Shown: positions 34,901-64,000 of the stretch, piece by piece
Layout: each line of letters opens with the position of its first letter
Numbering within the stretch: the stretch's first letter is position 1
Origin: Mobula birostris
Lineage: Eukaryota
Assembly (NCBI RefSeq): GCF_030028105.1
Contig: NC_092375.1
Coordinates: 44,801,130-44,865,129 of the forward strand
Length of the DNA: 64,000 bases
Direction: 5' to 3'
Program-made: the position numbers and the translations under genes
Notes under the pieces: model-generated
What the model was told of the DNA's origin: nothing
What the model saw: the letters and a program-made list of their open reading frames with translations, nothing else
Databases searched by the model: none

Positions 34901-37900
34901 TGTTATTTCCGATCTGCCCAGACTGTGGTCTTCCGGTGAGGAAACTGAGGATCCATTTGCAGAGTGAGGTTGAGAGCTGCAGGTTTTGGAGCTTTGTAGG
35001 AATGACTGGTTAAATGCTGAGCTGTAGTCAATAAACAGCAGCCTGATGCAAGTATTAATATTGTCCAGATGATCCAAGGCCATGTGAAGAGCAAATGAGA
35101 TTGTATCCGCTGTAGACCTATTGTGGCAATAAGCACATTGCAGTGGGCCCAGGTCCTTGAATAGGAAGGAACTGATTCTAGCCATGACCAACCTCTCAAA
35201 GCTCTTCATCACCAAGGATGTACTGCAAGTGCTACAGTTGTTAAGGTCTACTCTTACTGGACACTGGCATGATTGTTGTCCTTATGAAGCAGAGCTGAGG
35301 TGGTGTAGCCCAGGTCTGGGCCTGAGAGCGAGGAGAGATCTGCTGTTTAGACAAATTAAGCACCGTCCAGATTGGAAAGGAGTGGTATGGGTCGAATTGA
35401 GGCAGTGGGGCCCAGGCCCAACAGCGTATTGAAGCAGCAGGGCCCAGGCCAAGAGTGAGGAATGAGGTGAGGTAAGGCCAATTTAAGTGCCAGGCCAGAT
35501 TGAGTAGGTCAGGGTATCAGGCCGGAGGAGAGGGATAGGCTGTCATTCAGCTCACTGCTCTCTGAGGTGTACTCGTCCCTGCACTGAACTGCGGCTGGGG
35601 CCTGCAACTAACAGGCTCCTGGACCGGCTGCAGTGACGACTGTCTTCACAGCTGTGGATTCACTTTCATGAATTTCAGTTCTGAATGTTATTTGCTTACT
35701 TCGTTGTTTGTATGATTTCTTTTCTCTGCATGTTGGGAGTTTAATGAGTTTCTTTCTTTTGTGGCTGCGTGTAAGGAAATGAATCTCAAGGTTGTACATA
35801 GTATACATACTTCGATAATAAATGTACTTTGAACCTTAAAAGAAAAGAATGGCTGTAAAAGTTTCTATCTTATCATTGACACAACTGTATCATCTTATAA
35901 TTATTAAATATAGTTAGATTAATGGAACATCTCTATCAGCAGTAACAAAATAGTTTGTGGTTTAAGACAGTTGCAAGAAAGATGAACAATTAATGCTGCC
36001 TACCTCTTTTTCAACCACAATGCTGTTTCTGACATCAGGCGATGACTCAGACATCTGACATGCCTCCAATCTACTCCAAAGCCCCTGCCCTTGAGCTTAT
36101 AACACCTCACTGTGAACAATAGAAGTGATCCTTACTTATTCTGCAGAGAAACCCCAACCTTTGATCTGGCTCCACAGTAGAGCGGTCAGGATCCTGAAAC
36201 TCGCTGAGGACTTATTTTGTGACTGCATGCCTTCCTCTACCCTAATGCAAGTTTTAATAACATCCATTCTTGGTTGCATACCATGAATCTTTGCAATGCC
36301 AAGTTGTCAAGAAAGTGTAAGAGATGTAGACCTGCCTTCAATACTTTAAAAAAAAGTGAAGGAGATGGTCATGGACCCCACTGAACTTCTGATCCATTTT
36401 CTTGTGTTATGCTGTCATGGACTTGTTTTTAGCTTGACATTTACCATAACGAACTATACCACCGATACAAACACACTAGTTACTGTTTGTCCAATATATT
36501 CAACAAATCCATAGATAACATAATTGAAATTACTTTCAACCATTGCTTTGGTAACACCAACCAATCATAGTTTTACTAATGTCATGATACTAATTTAGTT
36601 GTCCTGAAGCAGAAAACTTATTAGAACGATGGCTATTGTCTGTACTTCAAAATTATATCATAACCTTGAAATTGCTCTCCATGGATTCTCTGTACAGTAT
36701 TCATGTTACAGAACACAGAACATTACAGCACAGTACAGACCCTTCAGCCAGCTGTTGTGCCGACCTTTTAACCTGTTCTAAGATCAATCTAACTTATCCT
36801 CCTACGTAGCCCTCCATTTTTATGTCAGAACCTTTAATCAATTTTGGTTCCTACTGCGATTATCATAGCACTCCTATTGCTTGCCTATCAAGCAAGCAGC
36901 TACCTGGCTGGTTAGTGGGATATGCAGTCCTAGTTAAGCATGATTGTGGAAATTGCAGCAAAGTAAGAGTTAAGAGCATGAGACCTAACAGAGCACAGGC
37001 ACTTTGTACAGGCTTTCTCTGAAGGCAACAAGTCAAGATGATAAGATAACTGAGACAGTACCCAGGCTGAATATGGCCCTTGAAAGCCGACCTCTTACAC
37101 AGCCTTTCTGTTCAAGCCTGGGAACCCAGATCACTAAGCAAACCAAGACAGATGAAGACGCAAATAAAGGATTCTAGCACTTACTATTGCACAATTATAT
37201 TATTAATTCTAGTATTATTGGCCTGTAATATGTGGATTTAATTAGTTACTAACACCTAAAATATGTATTATGATTGGTACTTAAGAATTGCACAAAATTT
37301 CTATTGGATAAATATTTGTAAATAACTAATACATTTCTGTTTAAAAATTGTATTCTTTTGTTCAAACTTCAGAGCAGTGTGGTAACAGGGGAAGTACTGT
37401 TCTCCTTGTGCACAAGTAAATACAGTGTGATTGAGGAACCTGTGCAAGTTGTCAGTGTCCAGTTCATCAGCAACAACAGATGACCTATAATCCCAAGGAA
37501 TTGAAGTGGCACCTTTAAAGTCAAACTGGTTGTTATCTTCCAAAATGTGATTGATTCTGAAATAGTTCCTACAGACTTAAAGGAAAGAAATGTAACCTGG
37601 CTATTTAGGAATGGTGGGAGAGAGGAACGAGAACTACAGACTAGTAAGTCATGACTCTATAGTAAACTGAATAGCCTGTTATTATGGCAGGGCTCTGTTG
37701 GCCAGCAGGAACTAGTCTACAAATTAGTGGATTCAATTACCCAAGGACAGGGGAAGCAGACAAACCAATTGTCTTTTTTTCCCCCCATTTTGTGGATTCT
37801 GAACTGATTCTTCCTCTGGGATAAACCAATCAGAGCAACTGAATGTGACACAAGGAGCATCAGGTAACCTGCTAAACTGGAGACCACTCTCAGACAAGTA

Positions 37901-40900
37901 TCTATTTTTTTGTAAAATGCCAGACCTGCTAAAGAGGCAATCTGTAATCTCATTATAATCTATCTGGGTCACCTAGTTTAACTGGTTTGGATCAGTCAGA
38001 GTTGAAAGACACATGCACCAGGTTGGAGGTGGGGCAGAACCATGAAACAATGTTGGTTATTGCCCTGGACTAGAACCAGAAAGGTGACTCAGGCAGGTGA
38101 GGTGACCTTGAGCCAATGGGATGGAGATCCTCCAGTTCAACAGATGAGGAACACTCTAGGAGTCAGGAGCTCCAAATACATAGCAGCGACAACCCTCCAG
38201 CAACCAGAGACCAACCTTTGCAGATAAGGAGGACACATTGGACACATGGAGATCGGGACTATAAGGAACGCCTGGCCAGTGTACTCATTTCCTGGGTAAT
38301 ACCTTCTATCTTCATTGACTGCTATTGGAGGGTCAGGGATTCTAGTGGTCGTGTACGCAAGTAGTCAGTTTGTGAACCCATGCGCTTTTTAGTTGTGACA
38401 ATAAAAATTATTTGGTGGTAAATACAGATTTTTTGTGCCTCACTGATTATTACTACAAGGGGTGATTTGTGTAACAGAATATTGGCGTCCCTGCTGGGGA
38501 CTCAAGGATAAATCTCTTTGTTCAGCGGGAAACTCGAGTTGGTCCACGTGGTGAGGTACGGAGAGATCTGGAGCTGGGTAGTTAGTGGGAACTAACCCAG
38601 GATGAGGAATTCAGGAAATTCTGTAAATCCGAAGGACTTGGGATGTTTTGATTGAAGGAGATACCTCCAGAAATACATGTTGGGGAACCAGCCACAATAT
38701 GAGGAGTTTGTTGGTCACCCTGGCTGTGAATGGAAAACTGCTGGAGATGCCCCTTGTAAATTTGCCCAAGGGAAGTAATCAGGCTGGAAGTTTAAACTAT
38801 TACAAACACCAGTGGCAGTTTGCTGCCACACATACAGAATGCAGGAGGAACTCAGCAGGCCAAAGAGTACAGTCAACCTTCTGGGCTGAGACCCTTCATC
38901 AGAACTGGAGAAAAAAGATGAGGAGTCAGTGTAAGAAGGTGGGGGGGAGGGGTGAAGTGAAGAGCTGGGAAGTTGATTGGTGAAAGAGTTACAGGGCTGG
39001 AGAAGGGGAAATCTGATAGGAGAGGACAGAAGGCCATGGAAGAAAGGGAAAGGGAAGGAGCACCAGAGGGAGGAGATGGGCGGGTAAAAGATAAAGTGAG
39101 AGAGGGAATGAGGAATGGTGAAGGGGGTGCATTACTGGAAGTTTGAGGAAACGATGCTCATGCCATCAGGTTGGAGACTACCCAGATAGAATATGAGGTG
39201 TCGTTCCTCCAACCAGAGTGTGGCCTCATTGCGGCAGTAGAGGAGGCCATGTTGGAATGGGAATGGGAAGTGGAATTAAAATGGGTTGCCACTGGGATAT
39301 CCTGCTTTTTCTGGCAGATGCAGTCTCCCAATCTACATCGGGTCTTACTGATATACAGGAGGCCACACCATGAGCACCAGATACAGTAGATGACCCAAAT
39401 AGACTCATAGGTGAAGTGTCGCCTCAACCGGAAAGACTATTTGGGGCCCTGAATTGTAGGGAGGGAAGAGGTGCACGGACAGGTGTAGCACTTGTTCTGC
39501 TTGCAAGGATACGTGCCAGGAGGGAGATTGGTGGAGAGGGACAAATGGACAAAGGAGTTGTGTAGGAAGCGATCCCTGCGGAAAGCAGAAAGTGCGGAGA
39601 AGGGGGAGGGAGGGAAGGATGAGTTTGGTGGTGGGATCCCATTGGCAATGACATAAGTTCTGGAGAATTATGTGCTGGATGCAGAGGCTAGTGTTGTGGT
39701 AGGCGAGGACAAGAGGAAGCCTATCCCTGGTGAGGTGGTGAGAGGATGGGGCAAAGGCAGATGTTGACAAAATGGAAGCGATGCAGTTGATGGCAGTGTT
39801 GATAGTGGAGGAAGAGAACCCCTTTTCTTTGAAGAAGGAGTACATCTTCTCCAACCTGATGGCATGAATGTCGATTTCTCGAACTTCTGGTAATTGCCTC
39901 TACACCTTTTCCGCCATTCCCAATTCCTATTTCCCTCTCTCACTTTATCTCCTTATCTGTCCATCACCTCCCTCTGGTGCTCCTCCCCCTGTTCTTGCTT
40001 CCATGGCCTTCTGTCCTCTCCTATCAGATTCCCCCTCCTCCAGCACTTTATCTCTTTCACCAGTCGACTTCCTATCTGTTCACTCCTTCTCTCCTTCCTC
40101 CCCTTCCCAGTTTCACCCATCACTTTGTGTTTCTTCCTCCCCTCCCCCCACCTTCTAACTCTGACTCCTCATCTTTTATTTCTTTAGTCTTGATGAAGGG
40201 TCTCAGCCCTAAATGTCAACTGTACTCCTTTCCAAAGATGTTACCTGGCCTGCTGAGTTCCACCAACACATTTTGTGAATTGCTTGGATTTCCAGCATCT
40301 GCAGATTTTCTCTTGTTTGTGATTGTAGCAGTTGGCTGTTTAATTGAAGATATGATAGGATTCAGCGGCCTCAATGACTACAGACCAGTGGCATTGACCT
40401 CCCACATCATGAAGACCCTGGAGAGACTTGTTCTGGAGCTGCTCCGGCCTATGGTCAGGCCACACTTAGATCCCCTCCAGTTCGCCTACCAGCCCCGACT
40501 AGGAGTTGAGGATGCCATCGTCTTCCTGCTGAACTGTGTCTACGTCTTCCTGCTGAACTGTGTCTACACCCACCTGGACAAGCCAGCGAGCACTGTGAGC
40601 GTCATGTTTTTTGACTTCTCCAGTGCGTTCAACACCATCCTCCCTGCTCTGCTGGGGGAGAAGCTGACAGCGATGCAGGAAGATGCTTCCCTGGTGTCAT
40701 GGATTCTTGATTACCTGACTGGCAGACCACAGTACGTGTGCTTGCAACACTGTGTGTCCGACAGAGTGATCAGCAGCACTGGGGCCCCACAGGGGACTAT
40801 CTTCTCTCCTTTTCTCTTCACCATTTACACCTCGGACTTCAACTACTGCACAGAGTCTTGTCATCTTCAGAAGTTTTCTGATGACTCTGTCATAGTTGGA

Positions 40901-43900
40901 TGCATCAGCAAGGGAGATGAGGCTTAGTACAGGGCTACGGTAGGAAACTTTGTCACATGGTGTGAGCAGAATTATCTGCAGCTTAATGTGAAAAAAACTA
41001 AGGAGCTGGTGGTAGACCTGAGGAGAGCTAAGGTACCGGTGACCCCTGTTTCCAGCCAGGGGGTCAGTGTGAACATGATGGAGGATTACAAATACCTGGG
41101 GATACGAATTGACAATAAACTGGACTGGTCAAAGAACACTGAGGCTGTCTACAAGAAGGGCCAGAGCCGTCTCTATTTCCTGAGGAGACTGAGGTCCTTT
41201 AACATCTGCCGGACGATGCTGAGGATGTTCTACGAGTCTGTGGTGGCCAGAGCTATTATGTTTGCTGTTGTGTGCTGGGGCAGCAGGCTGAGGGTAGCAG
41301 ACACCAACAGAATCAACAAACTCATTCGTAAGGCTAGTGATGTTGTGGGGATGGAACTGGACTCTCTCACAGTGGTGTCTGAAAAGAGGATGCTGTCCAA
41401 GTTGCATGCCATCTTGGTCAATGTCTCCCATCCACTGCATAATGCACTGGTTGGGCACAGGAGTACATTCAGCCAGAGACTCATTCCACCGAGATGCAGC
41501 ACAGAGCGTCATAGGAAGTCATTCCTGCCTGTGGCCATCAAACTTTACAACCCCTCCCTTGGAGGGTCAGACACCCTGAGCCAATAGGCTGGCCCTGGAC
41601 TTATTTCATAATTTACTGGCATAACTTACATATTCCTATGTAACTATTTATGGTTCTTTTACTATTTATTATTTATGAAGCAACTGTAACGAAAACCAAT
41701 TTCCCCTGGGATTAATAAAGTATGACTATGACTATTAGGACAGAGTGGTAAAGCAGAATGGCACAGATGAGAAACGGAAAACGAATGTCGGCATAAAGCA
41801 GAAGCTGGGGCTTGGTGAGATAGGTTACAACAGGAAATCGTAGAATAACAGCAAAAAGCAGAAGCCGAGGGAGAGAGGTTAGAAAACGAACAGAAAAAGA
41901 GAACATAAGGAGGTTAGAAAGAGAACATAAAAGGCTCCAAAAGAAGGTAGAAACCTTCAGAGAAATAGTTACTGATTTACAGGGTTGGAGAGATATGGAC
42001 TTGATTCATATAAACCAATTTCAGTTGAAGTGCGAGAAATTACTTAAAGAAAAAGTGGAAGCAGCTGAACGATGAAGAAAGAAAAAATGGAAACAAGTGG
42101 AAGCAGCTGAACGATGAAGTGGAAGGATTAAGGAAACAGTGTGGTGATTTAAAGACGGCTTTGAATGTGATTCGGAAATCAGCACAGGAAAGAAAGAGTA
42201 ACACTCTCGATCATGCGGTGTTTAAAAGCAGATACAAAATCTACAGGACCAATTTGCTGCACAGTGAGAAACAGTGTGTGCTTTTGATCTGAACGAGGAG
42301 AGGAAGGTATTGATAGCCATGATATATCAGATGAAGCTACTAGGTACGGTCACGAAGCACCATTTCCCGAGGAACTCTCACCGACACACTCCCAACAGGA
42401 GCCGGTACTATTGTCTGCATGAATGGCGCCCCTAGTTACTATCAGAGATGGGACGGGGGGAGTCGGGGAGGAAATCAAAATCAGAACACCATACTGTACA
42501 GGGGTAGCAGCATGTGCAGGTAATTTTTTTATCTAACTGAAATGACGGTGCCCTGAATGGCACCTACAACAAAACAATTATTTACTCACCTTCTTCAGAG
42601 ACAACTAAACAGGGAGTGATTTTAAGCCAGCCAAAAATAGAAGGAAAAGAGGAATATTGGAATAAGTGGGAGCAGGTTATGCCTCAGGGGTAGCAATGGC
42701 CAACACCCTAGGTATAGTAGAATTTTTTAAAAACAGATACAGCCCCTCCAGCAAAAAGCACTGGATATTACTGGAAAACATTATCAAGATCAGGTACAAA
42801 CTGATCAGATTGGTCGAGATGCATCCTTGGTAACTCTGGATGCAGTTAAATTTCTGAAGCCCCTTCAAGACACAACAAATCTGATTATTGACTTCATGTC
42901 TAATGAAAGGCATAAAACTGAGATCTGTGGTACATATGCTAGTTGGTTGCTTACCATGACTGGCACCGATTTATTACAACTTCATGCACATGAAGTACCA
43001 AATTGGGTATCAGATGAGCAGCTAAAAGAATGGATTGGAGAAAGGGCACCATTGTGTCATTTTAGAAGCCTTACAAAAATCAACAGGGTACTGGGTACCT
43101 GTGATAAAGGTAAAGGAAGGTTTTATGTCAGAGCGGTATTCCACATTCCCTGACATGAAAATAATTCAACCTACCCTTTAAAAAGGGTTCACACCATTGG
43201 TAAATACCATGAGAAATCATGGATATCCTTAAGTAACCCACCAACACATGCTATTGTTATGAATGGTACTGGGAAAGGGATAGATTTAATAAGATGCCAT
43301 CAAGGGGGAGGACCATTGGTCTTGTCCAGAAGAAATGACAAAGCAGAAGCTTACAAATTGTGGTTTCAGTACTTATGAAAATTGTTCATTGTCTATTTTG
43401 CTTGTGAATAATCAATCTTACAATATGTATTGTTGGGACAGACATATTATATAGTAACAGCAGTCGCAGGTTATACCAAGGGATGGAAACATGCCCTTTG
43501 GAAAGTCACAATGTCGCCATAGGGAATGTGATGTTAGATCTGGCCTTCGGAGGACCAACTTTGCCTCAGACAGCAGGAGACACAGTAATGACGGAGAATT
43601 TCAAGATCCAACACACTGATACAGATGAATATCTGTGAGACAACATTGTTACAGAGTTGCCACCAATTCCTCACTTAACTGCAGACTGGACATGTGTTGT
43701 GGAAGAGGCAAGGGAGATAATCCATCAATGGACTAACCACATTAAAGAAATTAAAACACCAGCTGTTATTATGAAATATTGAGTGACCCAGGCTTTTGGA
43801 GTAAGCTTTGGAACTGGGGAACAAATGTTCAATTACATCCGTGGGTGAGAATAGTATCACATGCTGCTGTAATACTAATTTTATATAACCTGATACTTGT

Positions 43901-46900
43901 AATGCTTAATGTACACCAACTGAAAAGGTGGAAGCCTGAAACAATGAAAAAAATAGAGGATGATATTTTTATGAAACAGCAGAGACGACTGTCAGTATAA
44001 AGTACGTGAATTTGGTGAGTAAATGTTAGTTTTATTTATAGAATGTAAGGGTTCCATGGCAGTCCTACAGGCAGTCAACTGAATGAGAGGAGGATAATGA
44101 TCCTAGGATAAATATCCTTGGATCAAGAGGAGGGAGATGTTGGCCAGAAGGAACTGCAGTCTACAAATTGGTGGATTTGATGAATCAAGGGCAGGAGAAG
44201 CAAACAAAGTAATTGCCTTTGTTTCCTTCCATTTTGTGGATTCTGAACTGATTCTTGCTCTGGGATAAACCAATCAGAGCAACTGAATGTGGACACAAGG
44301 AGCAGCAGGTAATGACCTGCTAAACCAGAGACCATTCTCAGATGAGTAGCTATATATTATGTAAAATACCAGACCTACCAAAGAAGCAATCTGTAATCTT
44401 GTTAGACTCTGTCTGGGCTGCCTTGTTTAACCGGTTTAAACCAGTCAGAGCTGGAACACACAAGGCTGGGGTGGGGGGGCGGTGGCAGTGAGGGAGGTAG
44501 GGCAGGGGCAGAATCATGAGACAATGTTGGACTAGAAACAGTAAGAAGGTGTCCCAGGTAGGTGAGGTGACCTTGAGCCAATGGGAAGGAGATCCACCAG
44601 TTCAACTGATGAGGAACACTCTAAGGGTCAGGAGCTCTGAATGCAAAGAGCCGATAACTCTCCAGCAACCAAAGACCAACCATCATGGATAAGGAGGACT
44701 GCATGGACACATGGAGATCGGGACCATGAGGAACGCCTGGTCAACATAGACTCCTTTCCTGGGTAATATCTTTTCTCTTCATTGACTGTTATTAGGGGGT
44801 CAAGGATTCCAGTGGGGTGCACACAGGTAGTTAGTGTGTGAACTCAGGTGCATTTTATTTGAGACAATAAAAGTTACTTGGTCTGTGCATCAGATTATTA
44901 TTACAAGAGGTGATTCTTGTAACAACTCTTTGAAGGTAAAAGTACGATCAGGCAGCGTTAATGTAAATCACGAAAAGGTAAATAATTTTCAACAATCAGT
45001 TAACAAATAATCTGAGGTTGCATTTAATGGAATAGCTTAGACTTTCAGAAAGCCTTCCAAAGGATATCACTCAAGAGATTATTTAACAAAATGAAAGTAC
45101 ATTAGATTAGTATTAATGAACTAGCACAGTCTGAAGATTGGTCAGTATAACTGAAGTCCCAGTTGGTCACAATCTATATCAATAACTTCAATGATTCTTT
45201 TTAGTGTAATGCATGCAGATTTACTGACAAAAATCAATGTGGATCTGAAGGATCTTGACAGGCTATGTGAATGGGTGACTAGATAACAGAATCAGAATCA
45301 GGTTTATTATCACCAGCATGTGTCACAAAATTTGTTAACTTAGCAGCAGCAGTTCAATACAATACATAATACAGAAGAAAAATAAATAAATAAAAGTATA
45401 TGTATATTGAATAGATTAAAAATTGTGCAAAAACCAAAATAATATATATTTAAAAAGTGAGGTAGTGTTCACAGGTTCAATGTCCATTTAGGAATTGGAT
45501 GACAGAGGGGAAGAAGCTATTCCTGAATCGCTGAGTGTGTACCTTCAGGCTTCTGTGTCTCCTACCTGATGGTAACAGTGAGAATAGGGCATGCCCAGGG
45601 TGCTGGGGGTCCTTAATAATGGACGCTGCCTTTCTGAGACACCGTTCCTTGAAGATATCCTGGGTACTTTGTGAGCTCGTACCAAGGACGTAGCCCACTA
45701 AATTTATGACTCTCTGCAGCTTCTTTCGGTCCTGTGCAGTAGCGCCCCATTCCACCCCGCCCCCACCCCATCCATACCAGACAGGATGTAGCCTGTCAGA
45801 ATACTCTCCACTGTACATCTATAGAAGCTTTTGGGTGTTTTTGTTGACATACCAAATCTCTTCAAACTCCTAACGAAGTATAGTCACTGTCTTGCCTTCT
45901 TTATCACTGCATTGATATTTTGGGAACAGGTTATATCCTCAGAGATCTTGACACCCAGGAAATTGGAGCTGCTCACTCTCTCCACTTCTGATTCCTTATT
46001 GAGGATTAGTGTGTGTTCCTTCATCTTACCCTTCCTGAAGTCCACAATCAGCTCTTTCGTCTTACTGACATTGAGTGCAAGGTTATTGCTGCAATACGAT
46101 TCCACTAGTTGGTATATCTCACTCCTGTACGCCCTCTTGTCTCCATCTGAGATTCTACCAGCAATGGTTGTATCATTAGCAAGTTTACAGATGGTATTTG
46201 AGTTATGCCTAGCCACACAGTCATGGGTATACAGACAGTAGAGCAGTGGGCTAAGTACACAGTCCTGAGGTGCCCCAATGTTGATCGTCAGTGAGGAGGA
46301 CATATTATCGCCAATCCGCATAGATTGTGGTCTCCCGGTTAGGAAGTTGAGGATCCAATTGCAGAGGGAGGTACAGAGGTCCAGGTTCTGTAACTTATCA
46401 ATCAGAATTGTGGGAACTATGGTGTTAAAAGCCAAGCTATAGTCGATGAACAGCATCCTGACATAGGTGTTTGTATTGTCCAGATCGTCTAAGGCCCTGT
46501 GAAGAGCCATTGAGATTGTGCCTGCCGTTGACCAATTGTGGTGATAGTCAAATTGCAGTGGGTCCAGGTCCTTGCTGAGGCAGGAGTTCAGTCTAGTCAT
46601 GACCAACCTCTTAAAGCATTTCATCACTGTCGATGTGAGTGCTATACAGATGGAACACAATGCAGAAAAATGTGAAAGAATTTGCTTTGGTAAAACAAAT
46701 GAAGGAAATTAGTACTCTTAAAATCAATTTAGACAGCCCTCAGGTTTGATTATTATTTCATTTCACTGCATTTATGGGAAATAAATTTAATATGGAGTAG
46801 CCATCACACATGAGACACCGCAGGGTCTTGACAGGGTAGAGTCTTTTCTATTTAGTAGGATTTCACTATAACACATTTAGCTAAGGAAGCACAATTATAT

Positions 46901-56035: not shown

Positions 56036-56700
56036 GATAGTCATACTTTATTGATCCCGGGGAAATTGGTTTTCGTTACAGTTGCACCATAAATAATTAA
56101 ATAGTAATAAAACCATAAATAGTTAAATAGTAATATGTAAATTATGCCAGGAAATAAGTCCAGGACCAGCCTATTGGCTCAGGGTGTCTGACCCTCCAAG
56201 GGAGGAGTTGTAAAGTTTGATGACCACAGGCAGGAATGACTTCCTATGACGCTCTGTGTTGCATCTCGGTGGAATGAGTCTCTGGCTGAATGTACTCCTG
56301 TGCCCAACCAGTACATTATGCAGTACATGGGAGACATTGACCAAGATGGCATGCAACTTGGACAGCATCCCCTTTTCAGACACCACTGTGAGAGAGTCCA
56401 GTTCCATCCCCACAACATCACTGACCTTACGAATGAGTTTGTTGATTCCGTTGGTGTCTGCTACCCTCAGCCTGCTGCCCCAGCACACAACAGCAAACAT
56501 GATAGCACTGACCACCACAGACTCGTAGAACATCCTCAGCATCGTCCGGCAGATGTTAAAGGACCTCAGTCTCCTCAGCAAATAGAGATGGCTCTGACCC
56601 TTCTTGTAGACAGCCTCAGTGTTCTTTGACCAGTCCAGTTTATTATCAATTCATATCCCCAGGTATTTGTAATCCTCCACCATGTCCACACTGACCCCCT
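56036..56700 (-). mobile_element. Young Rex1/Babar-type LINE 3' end, same subfamily as 40361-41735
   Basis: C-terminal protein and 3' UTR nearly identical to 41060-41735. Confidence 0.92.
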
Positions 56701-57498
56701 GGATCTCAAGCTCTGAGGTAGCGGCTTTACCACCAAATATCGGAAATCTGAAATGAAAACAATAAATGCTGGAAGAACACAGCAGATCAGGCAACATCTG
56801 TGGAACATAAAACTGAGCTAAAGTTTCAGACTGAAGCCCCTTTTCAGAACTGGGGAAGTCAGAAAACAAATTAATGTTAAGTTACAAAGAAAGTGGGGAA
56901 ACGATGAGTGCGAAAATGTCTCCAGGGTGCTTTCTTTGATCCTTAACCACGGTTTCTCCTCTACCATGTCTGGCATGTTATCCCCTCTATCCACAGCCAA
57001 GTTAAAGATTGGAGTTCCCTGATACTTGCTTTCCACCCACCAGCCCCCGCATTTAGTGGATCATCCATCATAATTTCCACCACTTTCAACAAGGTTCCAT
57101 AACCATACACATCTGAATTCGATAAGGAGAGGAGACTGCCTGGTCAACTTATCCTTCCTCACCAACCACTCCCTTTCTTGCAACACTTTCTTGTGCAACC
57201 ACAGGAGATGAAGTACTTACCCTTGTACCTTTTTCCCTTCCCATTATCCAGAAACCCAAACAGTCTTTCCTGATGAAACAGCAACTCATTTGCACTTCTT
57301 CTCAATCTAGTACGTTGCATTCAATGCTTACTTTGGATTTTCGTCTCAATAATGGAAAAATCCAATACAGCTTGTGCAATTGATCAGAAAATTATCAGAA
57401 TACAATCTGCAGAAGCATGACAGTAGTGTAGCAGTTACAATAATGCTATTATGGTAAGATGGTGCTGATAAGTAGTGACTTTGTGTGCAGCTCCAATG

Positions 57499-57944: not shown

Positions 57945-58974
57945 TCCCAACTATCCTACTGGCAAATGTACAGTCTCAGGAATGTAAAACTGAAGCCCTC
58001 AGAACAAGATTGCTGTACAAGAGGGATATTAGGGACTGCTGTGTACTTTGCTTCATGGAAACTTGGCTATTCCCCCACATTTTGATACAGCACTGCAACC
58101 CAATGGTTTCACCATTCTCTGCAAAATACAGGTCAGCTTAGAATTATAAGTGTAGAGGAAGTGGAGTATACTTCATGATTAACTCATTGTAGTGCACAGA
58201 CATAGCAGTTCTGTCTCAATTCTGCTCATCTGACCTAGAACATCTAGCAGTCAAATGTTATACTATCTATCTGCTGAGGGAGTTTCCACCATCATCCTGG
58301 TAGCAGTGTACAGTCCACCTCAGCCAAAGTTGGGCTGGCACTGGAGAAGCAGGCACAAAACAGTGCACCCTTACGCCTTCATTGTGGGGGATTTGAACTA
58401 GTCCAGCTCGAAGAAGTCTCTGAACAACTACCACCAATGAGGAGTCAACACACGACCACTGTTATACCACCATCAAGAAGACTTACCATGCCATCCCATG
58501 CCCTGACTTTGCAAAGTTTGATCACCTGCTGAATCCCTACTCCCAGCATATAGGCAAAGACTAAGGACCGCAGCACAGTGGTGAGGGTGACAAAGGTATG
58601 GTCAAGGGAGGTGGAGGAGTGCTTATCGGACTGCTTTGAGTTGGTGGACTGGACAATATTCAGGGATTTATTTTCAAATCTGAATAAATACACCATAGTA
58701 GTCAACGACTTCATCAATACCTGTATAGATGAGCGTGTGCCTTTGAGAACATACCAGACATACCCAAACCAAAAGCCTTGGATGAGCCAGAAGATTCATA
58801 GTCTGCTGAGGGCTAGATCTGTGGCATTCAAGTTCAGTGATGCAGAACTATACAAGAAGTCCAGGTACAAGCTATGGAAGGCTATTTTAAGATCCAAAAA
58901 TCAATTCTGATTGAGGTTAGAGATGGAATTGGATGCATGCCAGCTCTGGCTCTGGCAGAATTTGCAGACCATTA
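57945..58974 (+). mobile_element. Rex1/Babar-type LINE, AP-endonuclease/tether region, cut by an LTR
   Basis: LPTILLANVQS..RDIRDCCVLCFMETWL; DCFELVDW..YPNQKPW; ends at LWQNLQTI, where the LTR begins. Confidence 0.85.
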
Positions 58975-61620
58975 TGTTAGCCAGAAAGAATTGCAGTCTG
59001 CAAATTGGTGAATCCGAATGAATCAAGGACAGTGGAAGAAGACAGACCAATTGTCTTTGTTCCTGCTATGTGCTTGGAGATGGAGGCTGCCATTTTGTGG
59101 AACTGTTTTACGTCCTCCATTTTGTGTGATGAAATTGCTTGGCTTGATCTGTGTTTTAAAGTAGACACAATGATGCCTCAGGTATCTGCTAAACTAAGGA
59201 TAATTTCAAAATAAGAAGTTATTTGTGAGGTGTTCTTTGGTTGGATATAACATGCAGGTTTGTCAATGTTGGTCTGTGTGATTAAAGCTGAGAACAAAGA
59301 TCCATAAATTTCCACTTGTCACTTGCTGGGAAGAAGGCAATAAATGGATGCTGGCCTAGAGCAGAGCTAATAAAAAGCTGTTAAAATTCAGACGCATGAT
59401 CTACAGCCAACAGCACTGGAATGCAATATTTGAATTGATAAGAAATGAATATAAAAGCAGCCTCTTCAACTTTGCTGGCAGAGGTAGCTGTGTAGGAGAA
59501 CAACCATCGCAGATGTGAGGTGCTCCGTGGACACATGGAAGTTTAAAACGGGACTAGGAGAAACAAGTGGACAGCAGCAGAAATTCCGTTTTAACTGGTG
59601 ATATCTTGTTCTGTTCTTTGACTGTTCGTGGAAGGACAGGAAAACTTAGTTGGTGTGCACACAAGATATTTAGTGTATGAATTCACATACTTGTTAGTTT
59701 AGACAATAAATGTACTTATTGGTAAATACAGATCTCCCTGTGCCTCTCTGATCATTATTTCAAGGAGTGATACTTGTAACAGTATTGACAACTCTGGGTG
59801 GACTCAAGTTCAAATCTCTCCATCAACAGAAGGCTCGAGTCAGACCACGTGAGTGAGAAACAGGGGCTGGGTAGTTTGTTAGTACAAACGCAGGATGAGG
59901 AATTCAGGGAATTCTGCAAGTCCAGAGGACTTGGATTGATCTGAGGGAATTCCTCCGGAAGTACATGTTGGGGAAATGGACACAATATGGGGTGTATGCT
60001 GGACACACCAACAGTGAAGGCAGCAAAGCACTTTTTAAAATTGCCAAAGGAAAATTGTCAGACAAGGAATTTAAGCAGCTACTGAAGCCAGTAACAGTGG
60101 CCTGCCTCACTGAGGATTTCAAAGGATATTGGCAAAAAGCTGATGCCAATTGAGATAGATTACAACAGGAAATGCCCCAATATCAGCGAGACACTAGGGT
60201 AGAGCAGGAGAGATTAGAGAAGGAGGTAGAAACACTCAAAGGAAAAGTTATTGCTTTGCAGGGACAGAGAAGTATAGATTTGGTGCATATGAACCAATTT
60301 CAGCCAAAGTGCAAGAAATTGGTTAAATAAATGAGTAAAAGGGAAGAAGAAACTAATTTACCTAAGAGGCAGGTGGAGGAGTTAAAGAAACAGTGCGGTG
60401 GTTTAAAAGCAGCTATAAATGTGATACAGAAATCAGTTTCCGAAAAGAGAAATAAGATTAGTGATCATACAAAGTTGCAGGACCAAGTTGCTTCAGAGAA
60501 AGGAGTAATATGTGCTTTTGGATCTGAAAGAGGGAAGGAGCATTAATATACAGATATTGATTGGCATGATTTAGCAAATAAGGTGACCAGATCTTGCCAT
60601 AAAGAGCCTCTATCCCAGGGCAATCAAAAAGAGCCTGTCTCCCCTAGTTACTATCAGAGAGGGAAGAGCCAGGGCAGGAAATTAAAACCAGAATATAACA
60701 TACACTACACCGTTCGAAGTTCAGTGAGTTAGAGATATGGCTAAGAGTATTGGGACATACAGTATATGCCCGGGAATGTCCTTGGAAACCGTTCCAAGGA
60801 ATTAGTTACCAGAAAGCAATATATGGACTAAAAGGTGCTGAACAAAAAACATTGAGTATAATGAGCTTGCATGCGAACATACGCTGTGCTTTTCCAGAAG
60901 CAATATGCTGGGGGAAACAAATGAGTAGTTAAAGAATGCGATACTGACAATTATGGGTAACAACAGTGAGGACCCAAAAGATGAGTTACGTAAATGTTAC
61001 CAGAAGAAAGGAGAACACACCGGTGCATTTGCGTCCCATCTGTGGATGGTGTTCCAAGGGTTGTATGGAACAATATTAGATCACACTCATTTAGAGCCAC
61101 AACCCACAAATAGATGGTTAAGAACATTAGTGTCTCATAGCACCGACAAATCTAAAAAAATGTTGAAACTGTTTGATCTCAGTGACCCAACACATACTTA
61201 GGAAAATGTTTAGAGCATGGGAGAAGGAAGTGCAGGAGCTGGGTTTTACCTTTAGGAATTCTCCAGAGGCAGATAAAATGTTTCCCTTTCAAGAAATTAC
61301 ACGGGATATTGGGTAGGAAAAAGTGGGTCAGGACAGAAGGCAGCAGAGAGATTGTAGAAGGGAAGTAACACTGCGCTGGAATGTGCCTTCGCCCAGTCAG
61401 AGAAGCTGTTGTCAGGGCAGTTGGCGCTCAGGTCTGCTGTTTCAGATGTGCTCATATGGGTCATGAAACCAAGAAATGTGCAGTGGACAGTTCATTAAAT
61501 TTAAATCCTACCAAAATCAGAGATGGAGTTTCAAAAGGGTCAGAATATGTTAGAATTTTGGTTAATGTGGGGATTTCATGCTTTAAACTTGTTAAATGTC
61601 ATTTAGTTGTGCATGATGAA
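58975..61620 (+). mobile_element. gag: Second, related ERV/LTR copy: 5' LTR (58975-59781), PBS, decayed gag with CCHC knuckle
   Basis: TGTTAG...TGTAACA LTR; PBS-like TGACAACTCTGGGTGGAC; coiled-coil region collinear with 42000-42500; CFRCAHMGHETKKC (CX2CX4HX4C). No pol, env or 3' LTR recognised downstream. Confidence 0.78.
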
Positions 61621-62437: not shown

Positions 62438-63373
62438 TGTCATGGTCCGGTCCGTGAAGTCCGCATTCCGGTTCATGGTCCGGTCCGTGGACTCAGGACT
62501 CTGGGTCTTCCAGCTGTCCCTTGTTTGAATTAATCATAGGCACCTGATTCCCATCTTTGGACTTGCAATATAAGTAGCCTTGGGATTGAGTGTGGGCTGC
62601 TGGTTTGTCTTGTCAGTCCCCCTTGGAGCAACCTGCTGATGGAAGGCTAGTGAAACCATTTGTGATCTCCAGGCCTGGTTGGAGGACCACTGCTTCATGG
62701 AGCCTTGTTGCCACTTGTTGGAGTGGTCTTTGTGGTATGGATTTGGCTGTTTCCTGGGCCAGCTGAGTGGCTACCAGCCACTTCAAGCTAGGTAGGGATC
62801 TGGCTGTTTCCATAGCCAGCTGAGGTTTCTGGCCAAACTGAGACTCAGAGCTTCCCTGGAGCAGAGATGGCACTGTCTGTTGTTCTTTGGTGTTTGTCTC
62901 TCTTTGTCCTTGCCTCTGTGGGGTAAGCCAGGCTGTTTTGCTGTTGCCCTGTAGGGGGATCCTTGTCTTGTCCTTGCCTCCGTGGGGTAAGCCAGGCTGT
63001 TTTGCCGTTGCCCTGCGGGGGGATCTGCCTTGTCTTGTCCTTGTCTCTGTGGGGTGAGCCAGGCCATTTTGCCCTTGCCCTGTGGGGGGACCTGTCTTCT
63101 CTTTGCCTCTGTTGAGTAAGTCCAATTGTCCTGCTGTTACCTGATGGAGAGACCTGTCCCACCTTGGTATAGAGATGAAGTTGAGTCCTGGCTTGTCGTA
63201 GGATAAGTCCTGGCTCTATATCTATGTTCTGTCCTGTCTCATGTTTGTGTTGTGTTAAAGATGAGTCCTGGCTTGTCGAAGGATAAGTCCTGGCTCTATG
63301 TTGATGTTCATTTCCTAATCTGTCTCTCAGCTTCAGTCTCTGAGTTATCAGCCTCTGTATTTCAAGATGAAGA
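62438..63373 (+). mobile_element. LTR-like sequence with internal degenerate tandem repeats
   Basis: Begins TGTCATGGTCCGG; TATA-like AATATAAG near 62567; about 63-67-bp repeats x3-4 (62909-63160) and an 80-bp-period duplication (63183/63263). Right end not seen. Confidence 0.4.
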
Positions 63374-64000
63374 CCCCAAGCCTCGACGATCCCGCGGCCA
63401 AGCTCCAAGAACCCGAGCCTCGACGATCCCGCGGCCAAGCTCCAAGAACCCGAGCCTCGACGATCCCGCGGCCAAGCTCCAAGAACCCGAGCCTCGACGA
63501 TCCCGCGGCCAAGCTCCAAGAACCCGAGCCTCGACGATCCCGCGGCCAAGCTCCAAGAACCCGAGCCTCGACGATCCCGCGGCCAAGCTCCAAGAACCCG
63601 AGCCTCGACGATCCCGCGGCCAAGCTCCAAGAACCCGAGCCTCGACGATCCCGCGGCCAAGCTCCAAGAACCCGAGCCTCGACGATCCCGCGGCCAAGCT
63701 CCAAGAACCCGAGCCTCGACGATCCCGCGGCCAAGCTCCAAGAACCCGAGCCTCGACGATCCCGCGGCCAAGCTCCAAGAACCCGAGCCTCGACGATCCC
63801 GCGGCCAAGCTCCAAGAACCCGAGCCTCGACGATCCCGCGGCCAAGCTCCAAGAACCCGAGCCTCGACGATCCCGCGGCCAAGCTCCAAGAACCCGAGCC
63901 TCGACGATCCCGCGGCCAAGCTCCAAGAACCCGAGCCTCGACGATCCCGCGGCCAAGCTCCAAGAACCCGAGCCTCGACGATCCCGCGGCCAAGCTCCAA
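63374..64000. repeat. 37-bp minisatellite, about 17 near-identical copies, runs off the window
   Basis: Unit AAGCTCCAAGAACCCGAGCCTCGACGATCCCGCGGCC. Confidence 0.97.

Follow-up and report, generated by a model that had tools for sequence, protein, structure and literature searches.

Retroviral envelope proteins (Env) resembling the fusion protein F of paramyxoviruses have been described in lokiretroviruses and in foamy viruses. Structures published for foamy viruses in 2024 split fusogens into class Ia, found in orthoretroviruses, and an F-like class Ib (PMC11468914), and the F-type fold is widespread (PMC12583693). Wang and Han weighed four scenarios for the origin of retroviral Env without deciding among them, and in the available part of their lokiretrovirus screen none of the six chondrichthyan genomes is marked positive (PMC7947760; further lokiretrovirus literature: PMC9040795, PMC8922424, PMC12440569, 10.1101/2023.10.26.564294). 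Endogenous retroviruses (ERVs) similar to snakehead retrovirus (SnRV) are known from the elephant shark (PMC4422223; also PMC4977317, PMC6001957; other literature on related ERVs: PMC11521997), and, in the portions available, surveys of anamniote env genes covered gamma-type Env only (10.1101/2021.11.23.469661, PMC12813294). Here, we analyzed a stretch of 64,000 nt from the ray Mobula birostris (NC_092375.1, positions 44,801,130 to 44,865,129, forward strand), hereafter the window, which holds an old, dead and internally deleted provirus at window positions 37696-44924. This provirus belongs to a likely SnRV-like ERV family with a predicted F-type env, of which one intact env paralog has likely been co-opted by rays. 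The original prediction had proposed a loki-like element or an independent capture of an F-type env; the F-type part was right and the loki label wrong. The family, which is widespread in elasmobranchs, likely consists of SnRV-like ERVs whose envelope is of class Ib.

The predicted layout of Env, as in the intact paralog on C3, comprises a signal peptide, a variable N-terminal module, an F2-like strand, a furin site, a fusion peptide, a first heptad repeat (HRA), a Cys-rich beta domain, a second heptad repeat (HRB), a Trp-rich segment, one transmembrane (TM) helix and a short tail. The env remnant in the window keeps this order from the end of the F2-like strand to the tail, matches the family profile at E 4e-87 and is 35-48% identical to the C3 protein. 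Its RRKR furin site lies at 42639-42650, followed by [23 protein letters not shown]; a heptad-like stretch begins at 42731, FWSKLWNWG at 43794, the TM helix spans ~43842-43907 and the stop codon is at 43998-44000, so that the motifs originally named (cleavage site, heptad-like stretch, FWSKLWNWG, TM and tail) are all present. In the window, a frame break interrupts the reported C-x8-C-x11-C-x7-C spacing, which the C3 paralog has whole (C508, C517, C529, C537). A gamma-type Env was rejected: as claimed earlier, CX6CC is absent, both from the intact paralog and from six of six long relatives tested, there is no TLV_coat match, and ~400 residues separate the furin site from the TM helix, in line with the earlier remark that the fusion peptide sits far from the membrane.

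An AlphaFold2 (AF2) model of the intact paralog's ectodomain, built from a 49-sequence alignment (pLDDT 67.9, pTM 0.54), supports the assignment of the family Env to the predicted class Ib, paramyxovirus-F-type fold, and with it the F-like envelope of the original prediction. All 36 rows listed by Foldseek against the PDB were pneumovirus or paramyxovirus F (respiratory syncytial virus (RSV), human metapneumovirus (hMPV), human parainfluenza virus 3 (hPIV3), henipavirus or related; best E 1.4e-11), and VIA structure comparison with F gave Z 9.3-10.9 over 260-340 residues (hMPV F: Z 10.0, root mean square deviation 6.9, 272 aligned). In the ESM Atlas, the top feature match was a cluster with 21% PF00523 at 0.95 and the next one with 82% PF00523 at 0.94, a result repeated by a frog homolog. 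The best matches in BFVD were lispivirus glycoproteins (E 4e-13) and baculovirus F; walleye epidermal hyperplasia virus Env (E 7e-9), walleye dermal sarcoma virus (WDSV) Env and feline foamy virus Env (E 4.9e-5) were also listed, and SnRV Env was not among the best 50 rows. Rows 18 and 33, the Env of WEHV-1 and WDSV, match the F-type model, suggesting that epsilon Env is also class Ib. Several results weigh against the fold assignment. Sequence searches of the PDB with env gave no F match, and in Pfam neither Fusion_gly nor TLV_coat was found with window pieces, the intact paralog and 49 alignment members; the weak Pfam matches were to GP41, at the HR2/TM end (E 0.016-0.65), and, in one chimeric model, to Baculo_F (E 0.001). 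TM-scores against F reached only 0.26-0.40, which is expected because the monomer model sits between conformations. A first model from 18 sequences had reached only pLDDT 31, and 137 of the 470 modelled residues of the later one are below pLDDT 50. If the protein worked as F does, its new N-terminus would be the fusion peptide and the two heptad repeats would refold around the ~400-residue beta-rich core, with the variable N-terminal module possibly binding the receptor.

The polymerase of the family must be judged from its paralogs, since no LTR-type Pol match occurs within the window (LTR, long terminal repeat). Long pol matches were present in five of ten fetched neighbourhoods (C5, C6a, C8, C19 and C29), with open reading frames (ORFs) for RVT_1, a tether-like RT_RNaseH, a second RNase_H (PF00075), integrase and a C-terminal SH3-like domain; the family's Gag has a CX2CX4HX4C zinc knuckle. 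The proteins closest to this Pol (44-52%) come from frog and coelacanth and likewise have dual RNase H. In a tree of 41 reverse transcriptase (RT) rows, the family fell inside a 100/99 clade with gamma/epsilon-type ERVs, with the lokiretroviral P0013 as its sister outside. Tree rows were picked by hand (39 of 120 Pol hits in the first tree, 24 of 120 in that used for the approximately unbiased (AU) test), and lokiretroviruses were represented by P0013 alone, a Leuciscus protein recognised by the motifs that it shares with published loki RTs (PMC7947760 supplement) and 35% identical to the family. Counted by hand over the 47-residue RT core against the alignment in that supplement, identities were 35 for SnRV, 25 for WDSV, 21 for Loki-Lch and 20 for simian foamy virus (SFV). 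The family is thus likely an SnRV-like (class III, clade Huo) ERV. This label depends on the hand count, because SnRV, ERV-L and foamy RTs are missing from the tree, which includes one lokiretrovirus only; against the placement also stand the 80/88 support of the subclade containing the family and the origin of the RT sequences from C29 and C6 rather than from the window copy. Among the references, SnRV has the closest RT; SnRV-like ERVs are known from a cartilaginous fish, the elephant shark (CmiERV lineage I, PMC4422223), and like the family have a ~9-10 kb genome with long LTRs. SnRV differs in its accessory ORFs and in a 136-residue Env tail, against ~30 residues in the family (PMC12193657).

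Membership in the lokiretroviruses, which would be their first record in cartilaginous fishes, has several resemblances in its favour. Both groups have an F-like Env with an RXKR site and no CX6CC, a tether plus RNase H, and a coiled-coil region before the capsid, lokiretroviruses encoding an smc/spc7-gag (PMC7947760), and the top Pol matches of the family are labelled NYNRIN-like. Dual RNase H is, however, common to all retroviruses, the family RT groups with canonical retroviruses off the loki branch, and a clade of the family with loki was rejected by the AU test (p=0.00017). The RT core favours SnRV over loki (35/47 against 21/47), and the loki motifs CPFGY and G(N/T)L..VDD are absent from it. 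A loki RT query found nothing above 51% in this genome, the best matches being 49-51% over ~60 residues (150 of 4525 candidates scored). Viral contigs yielded no genome of loki or SnRV, and metagenome contigs gave one short contig without env. The family Env also carries an extra N-terminal module of ~200 residues, and no sequence-level env match to lokiretroviruses was identified. We therefore rejected membership, the RT lying outside the loki clade, and consider it very improbable. Because the RT of the pol-bearing relatives falls within canonical retroviruses, SnRV-like and apart from lokiretroviruses, the loki affinity failed the test originally set for it. The accompanying caution that chondrichthyans lie outside the reported loki hosts agrees with the six unmarked genomes in the available part of PMC7947760.

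A foamy-like ERV (clade Tu, like CmiFLERV) would bring a known F-like Env, and feline foamy virus Env is among the BFVD matches; moreover, foamy RT scored near that of murine leukemia virus in the PDB search. Foamy Env, of class Ib, shares with the family an F-like core with intertwined N- and C-subunits and a long TM ectodomain (PMC11468914). The family protein is instead single-pass type I with a short signal peptide, in contrast to a two-TM layout whose receptor-binding domain is inserted inside the surface subunit, and its variable module stands N-terminal to the F2-like strand rather than within it. To our knowledge, foamy Gag lacks the zinc knuckle that the family has. With no Foamy_virus_ENV match in Pfam, a count of 20/47 for SFV in the RT core (by hand, no foamy RT being in the tree), and neither RT nor Gag foamy-like, this assignment was rejected and is, in our view, highly unlikely. 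An SnRV-like family remains the preferred assignment.

Relatives of this env are few. A profile search of 1.84 billion proteins returned 38, and word-based protein searches found only one and three. Twenty homologs were looked up (19 of the profile relatives plus P0201), of which 19 were from elasmobranchs and one from Bombina, none labelled loki or viral; the genera are Heterodontus, Scyliorhinus, Mustelus, Chiloscyllium, Pristiophorus, Heptranchias, Rhinoraja and the frog Bombina. N-terminal modules vary by lineage. Three full-length homologs of 675 residues in Bombina bombina (P0197, P0199, P0200) and one of 739 residues in Chiloscyllium punctatum (P0169, labelled Ig-like in UniRef) could be young ERVs or co-options. 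The gene models P0170, P0186 and P0190 join env-family pieces to an ankyrin ion channel, fbxo15 and Niban-like proteins, reflecting either exonisation or annotation read-through.

The source of the envelope is a separate matter. Paramyxovirus and pneumovirus F (RSV, hMPV, hPIV3), lispivirus G, baculovirus and errantivirus F and walleye epsilonretrovirus Env share the predicted fold at 8-16% identity. A named paramyxovirus donor was rejected, since lispivirus glycoproteins, baculovirus F, walleye epsilon Env and foamy Env match too, at 10-16% identity; the fold being common to foamy, walleye epsilon, lispivirus and baculovirus proteins, the paramyxovirus or pneumovirus capture proposed earlier is unproven. 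The data agree equally well with an old envelope type having been retained. It is possible, and compatible with an SnRV-like family bearing an F-type env, that an SnRV-like gag-pol gained its env within elasmobranchs from a loki, foamy-like, epsilon or negative-strand RNA virus. Anamniote ERVs often swap env (10.1101/2021.11.23.469661; XtERV-S, PMC8278194), gamma-type Env is found in class III ERVs of frogs, lispivirus glycoproteins lead the BFVD list, and the F2-like strand and Cys-Gly motif resemble, by eye, those of the published Loki-Xtr Env. On the other hand, the homologs are scarce and without loki or viral labels, the identity to structural matches is too low for naming a donor, and the family occurs in sharks, rays and a frog, so that any swap must be very old. 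A broader scenario strikes us as rather doubtful: retroviruses would originally have had an F-type Env, which foamy, loki, walleye epsilon and SnRV-like lineages still carry, and gamma-type Env would have displaced it later. In this scenario, one such gene would also have been domesticated by myliobatiform rays, which bear live young, as the first F-type syncytin-like host gene, possibly acting in uterus or embryo.

The intact paralog (G000:C3:127239527-127241749, minus strand; L031:7528-9750) has an open frame of 741 codons; counted from the first Met, its protein is 733 residues long, with a short signal peptide and a single TM helix. The provirus that carries it is itself dead, with LTRs at a Kimura two-parameter distance (K2P) of 0.25 and pol only in scraps. 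The C-terminal 291 residues of the C3 protein have 133 matches, of which the C3 copy alone is full length and free of stops; the nearest of its genomic paralogs share 66-79% identity with it and are broken, and the next best matches (66-77%) have 2-10 stops. Intact proteins of 745 residues occur in NCBI gene models of the stingrays Hypanus sabinus (677/733, 92.4%) and Hemitrygon akajei (680/733, 92.8%), aligned without gaps; these, with the elasmobranch homologs, accord with the chondrichthyan host first suggested from the letters. Under neutrality, ~11 nonsense changes would be expected (P(0) ~1e-5) and none is present. The C3 stretch was found in sequencing runs of eight coded organisms and examined in four of 24 runs. 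In run X13, differences numbered 47/1339 in the coding part vs. 49/635 in the LTR (Fisher p=1e-4), making the coding part twice as conserved; run X9 held scattered pieces. In run X20, guessed to be RNA, a 2875-nt contig covers L031 6538-9414 and takes in the greater part of the ORF; its end lies 24 nt short of an AATAAA within the 3′ LTR. An intact ORF has thus been kept across species under apparent purifying selection, and the sequence comparisons suggest that the C3 env is probably a co-opted, syncytin-like host gene in rays. Its product would be a candidate fusogen at the cell surface, or a protein that blocks receptors, translated from a transcript ending in the LTR.

Some observations count against co-option. 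The RNA nature of X20 is only a guess, no listed run being recorded as RNA, and its contig stops before the AATAAA, not beyond; the four of its eight gaps that were inspected all lie outside the ORF. Of the 18 coding differences listed (a biased sample, 40 of 444 rows), eight are silent and ten replacing, and 7-8% protein divergence suggests moderate, not strong, constraint. Orthology rests on identity, with no host flank matched, the examined contigs staying within the LTR, and no host exon was recognised among the long ORFs in the 60 kb surrounding the C3 gene, read without a Pfam scan. The gene could therefore be a lucky survivor, or the stingray proteins could stem from separate recent insertions, as the unmatched flanks, the uncertain RNA and a second partial copy in Hypanus allow. 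That copy, P0123 of Hypanus sabinus, is a 319-residue near-copy of the intact env and probably a local duplicate. We regard such an origin as unlikely: the LTRs of the C3 copy are at K2P 0.25, yet other species match it at 92-97%, its closest genomic paralogs are distant and broken, and its coding part has changed half as fast as the LTR. Co-option therefore stays the favoured account of the C3 gene. Like syncytins, percomORF and Seb-env, this would be a single env ORF that stays intact, and is shared between species, while the provirus around it has decayed, although those are gamma-type, with an immunosuppressive domain (ISD) and CX6CC (PMC12813294). The survey in that paper required the CKS17 motif; at 1035-1980 bp, the 26 ORFs that it lists for Hypanus sabinus in the available part all differ in length from the C3 gene.

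The literature searched, which excluded most subscription papers, gave no description of SnRV-like ERVs with an F-type Env or of the ray env gene. An F-like Env joined to an RT inside canonical retroviruses, in a family spanning sharks, rays and a frog, breaks the Ia/Ib split and makes the scenario of an ancestral F-type Env, later replaced, testable. Env surveys that require ISD or CX6CC overlook the whole F-type class. In the C3 gene, rays that bear live young offer a specific candidate for a host-domesticated fusogen with a new type of fold.

Within the 4.0-Gb genome, a 140-residue env query gave at least 150 matches (150 of 150 scored, 454 candidates). Compared with the RTs of C5, C8 and C19, that of C29 is 70-84% identical over the best-aligned pieces and 49-58% across frame-broken stretches, and C5 agrees with the LTR, leader, gag and env of the window at 74-82%. 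LTR pairs in the family differ by K2P 0.06 to 0.25, indicating activity over a long time. The order LTR, primer-binding site (PBS), gag, pol, env, polypurine tract (PPT) and LTR, together with a target-site duplication and the zinc knuckle, is that of Retroviridae, pol being seen in paralogs only. Judging from this anatomy, the ancestral virus would have primed reverse transcription with tRNA-Asn, and its Env was presumably translated from a spliced RNA and then cut by furin; a splice-acceptor-like sequence precedes env in the C3 copy. The features of the window provirus are as follows.

37696..38476, forward strand: 5′ LTR with TG...CA ends, 77% identical to the 3′ LTR
38483..38500, forward strand: PBS of tRNA-Asn type, decayed here, the initial 11 bases agreeing
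38501..38824, forward strand: leader and gag start, 81% to the corresponding part of C5
38825..41735, no strand assigned: later, non-viral SINE/LINE (short and long interspersed element) insertions, including a non-LTR RT fragment, with RVT_1 and ALKBH8_N matches
41741..42486, forward strand: broken 5′ gag remnant with coiled-coil region, 69-81% vs. gag of C5, C6 and C8
42486..42496, forward strand: internal-deletion junction, ~6 kb lost, its flanks matching sites ~6.5 kb apart in C5 and C8
42496..44000, forward strand: broken env remnant, 76-82% DNA identity to family copies
44125..44137, forward strand: PPT, abutting the 3′ LTR and shared with the C8 copy
44138..44924, forward strand: 3′ LTR with TG...CA ends

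The two-LTR element of the original prediction is thus confirmed, with PBS and PPT. Its LTRs are 77% identical over 818 columns (K2P 0.186) and 73-82% identical to those of other family copies, and the 4-bp target duplication, with one mismatch, is seen in the C5 copy too. The age is uncertain, from ~40 million years at a mammalian rate (PMC7947760) to tenfold more at an assumed shark rate (PMC4422223). In the L034 paralog, 17 of 18 PBS bases equal the 3′ end of a host tRNA, and ARAGORN called such tRNA loci Asn(GTT) in two of three cases and Lys in one. The gag remnant gave weak coiled-coil matches only in Pfam. Most of gag, all of pol and the first ~220-250 env codons were lost at ~42490, a deletion that the original prediction had overlooked. 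That env is frame-broken was seen correctly at first; the extent was understated, as the deletion is joined by in-frame stops at 42663, 43151 and 43636 and by frame breaks near 42720, 43310, 43420, 43490 and 43770. These breaks were placed relative to one paralog, so some may belong to that copy. The window copy is incapable of making the ancestral viral products or of their functions.

Further observations concern the surroundings and the genome at large. The inserted LINE/SINE pieces total 2.9 kb and have a 94% inverted copy at window 56037-56702. At window 58974-61500 lies a second, truncated member of the same ERV group, with LTR pieces, a gag remnant and a decayed PBS at 59786, in which no pol or env match was found. 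On C17, ~35-83 Mb holds dozens of near-identical broken env copies, likely spread by segmental duplication, one of them (L050) adjoining a host-like ORF of 646 codons. C33 at ~19-43 Mb holds ~94 of the 100 listed matches to the tRNA-Asn 3′ end, a large dispersed tRNA array. Finally, a GC-rich tandem array with a 37-base unit, ~99% identical, occupies window 63259-64000 and continues past the window end.

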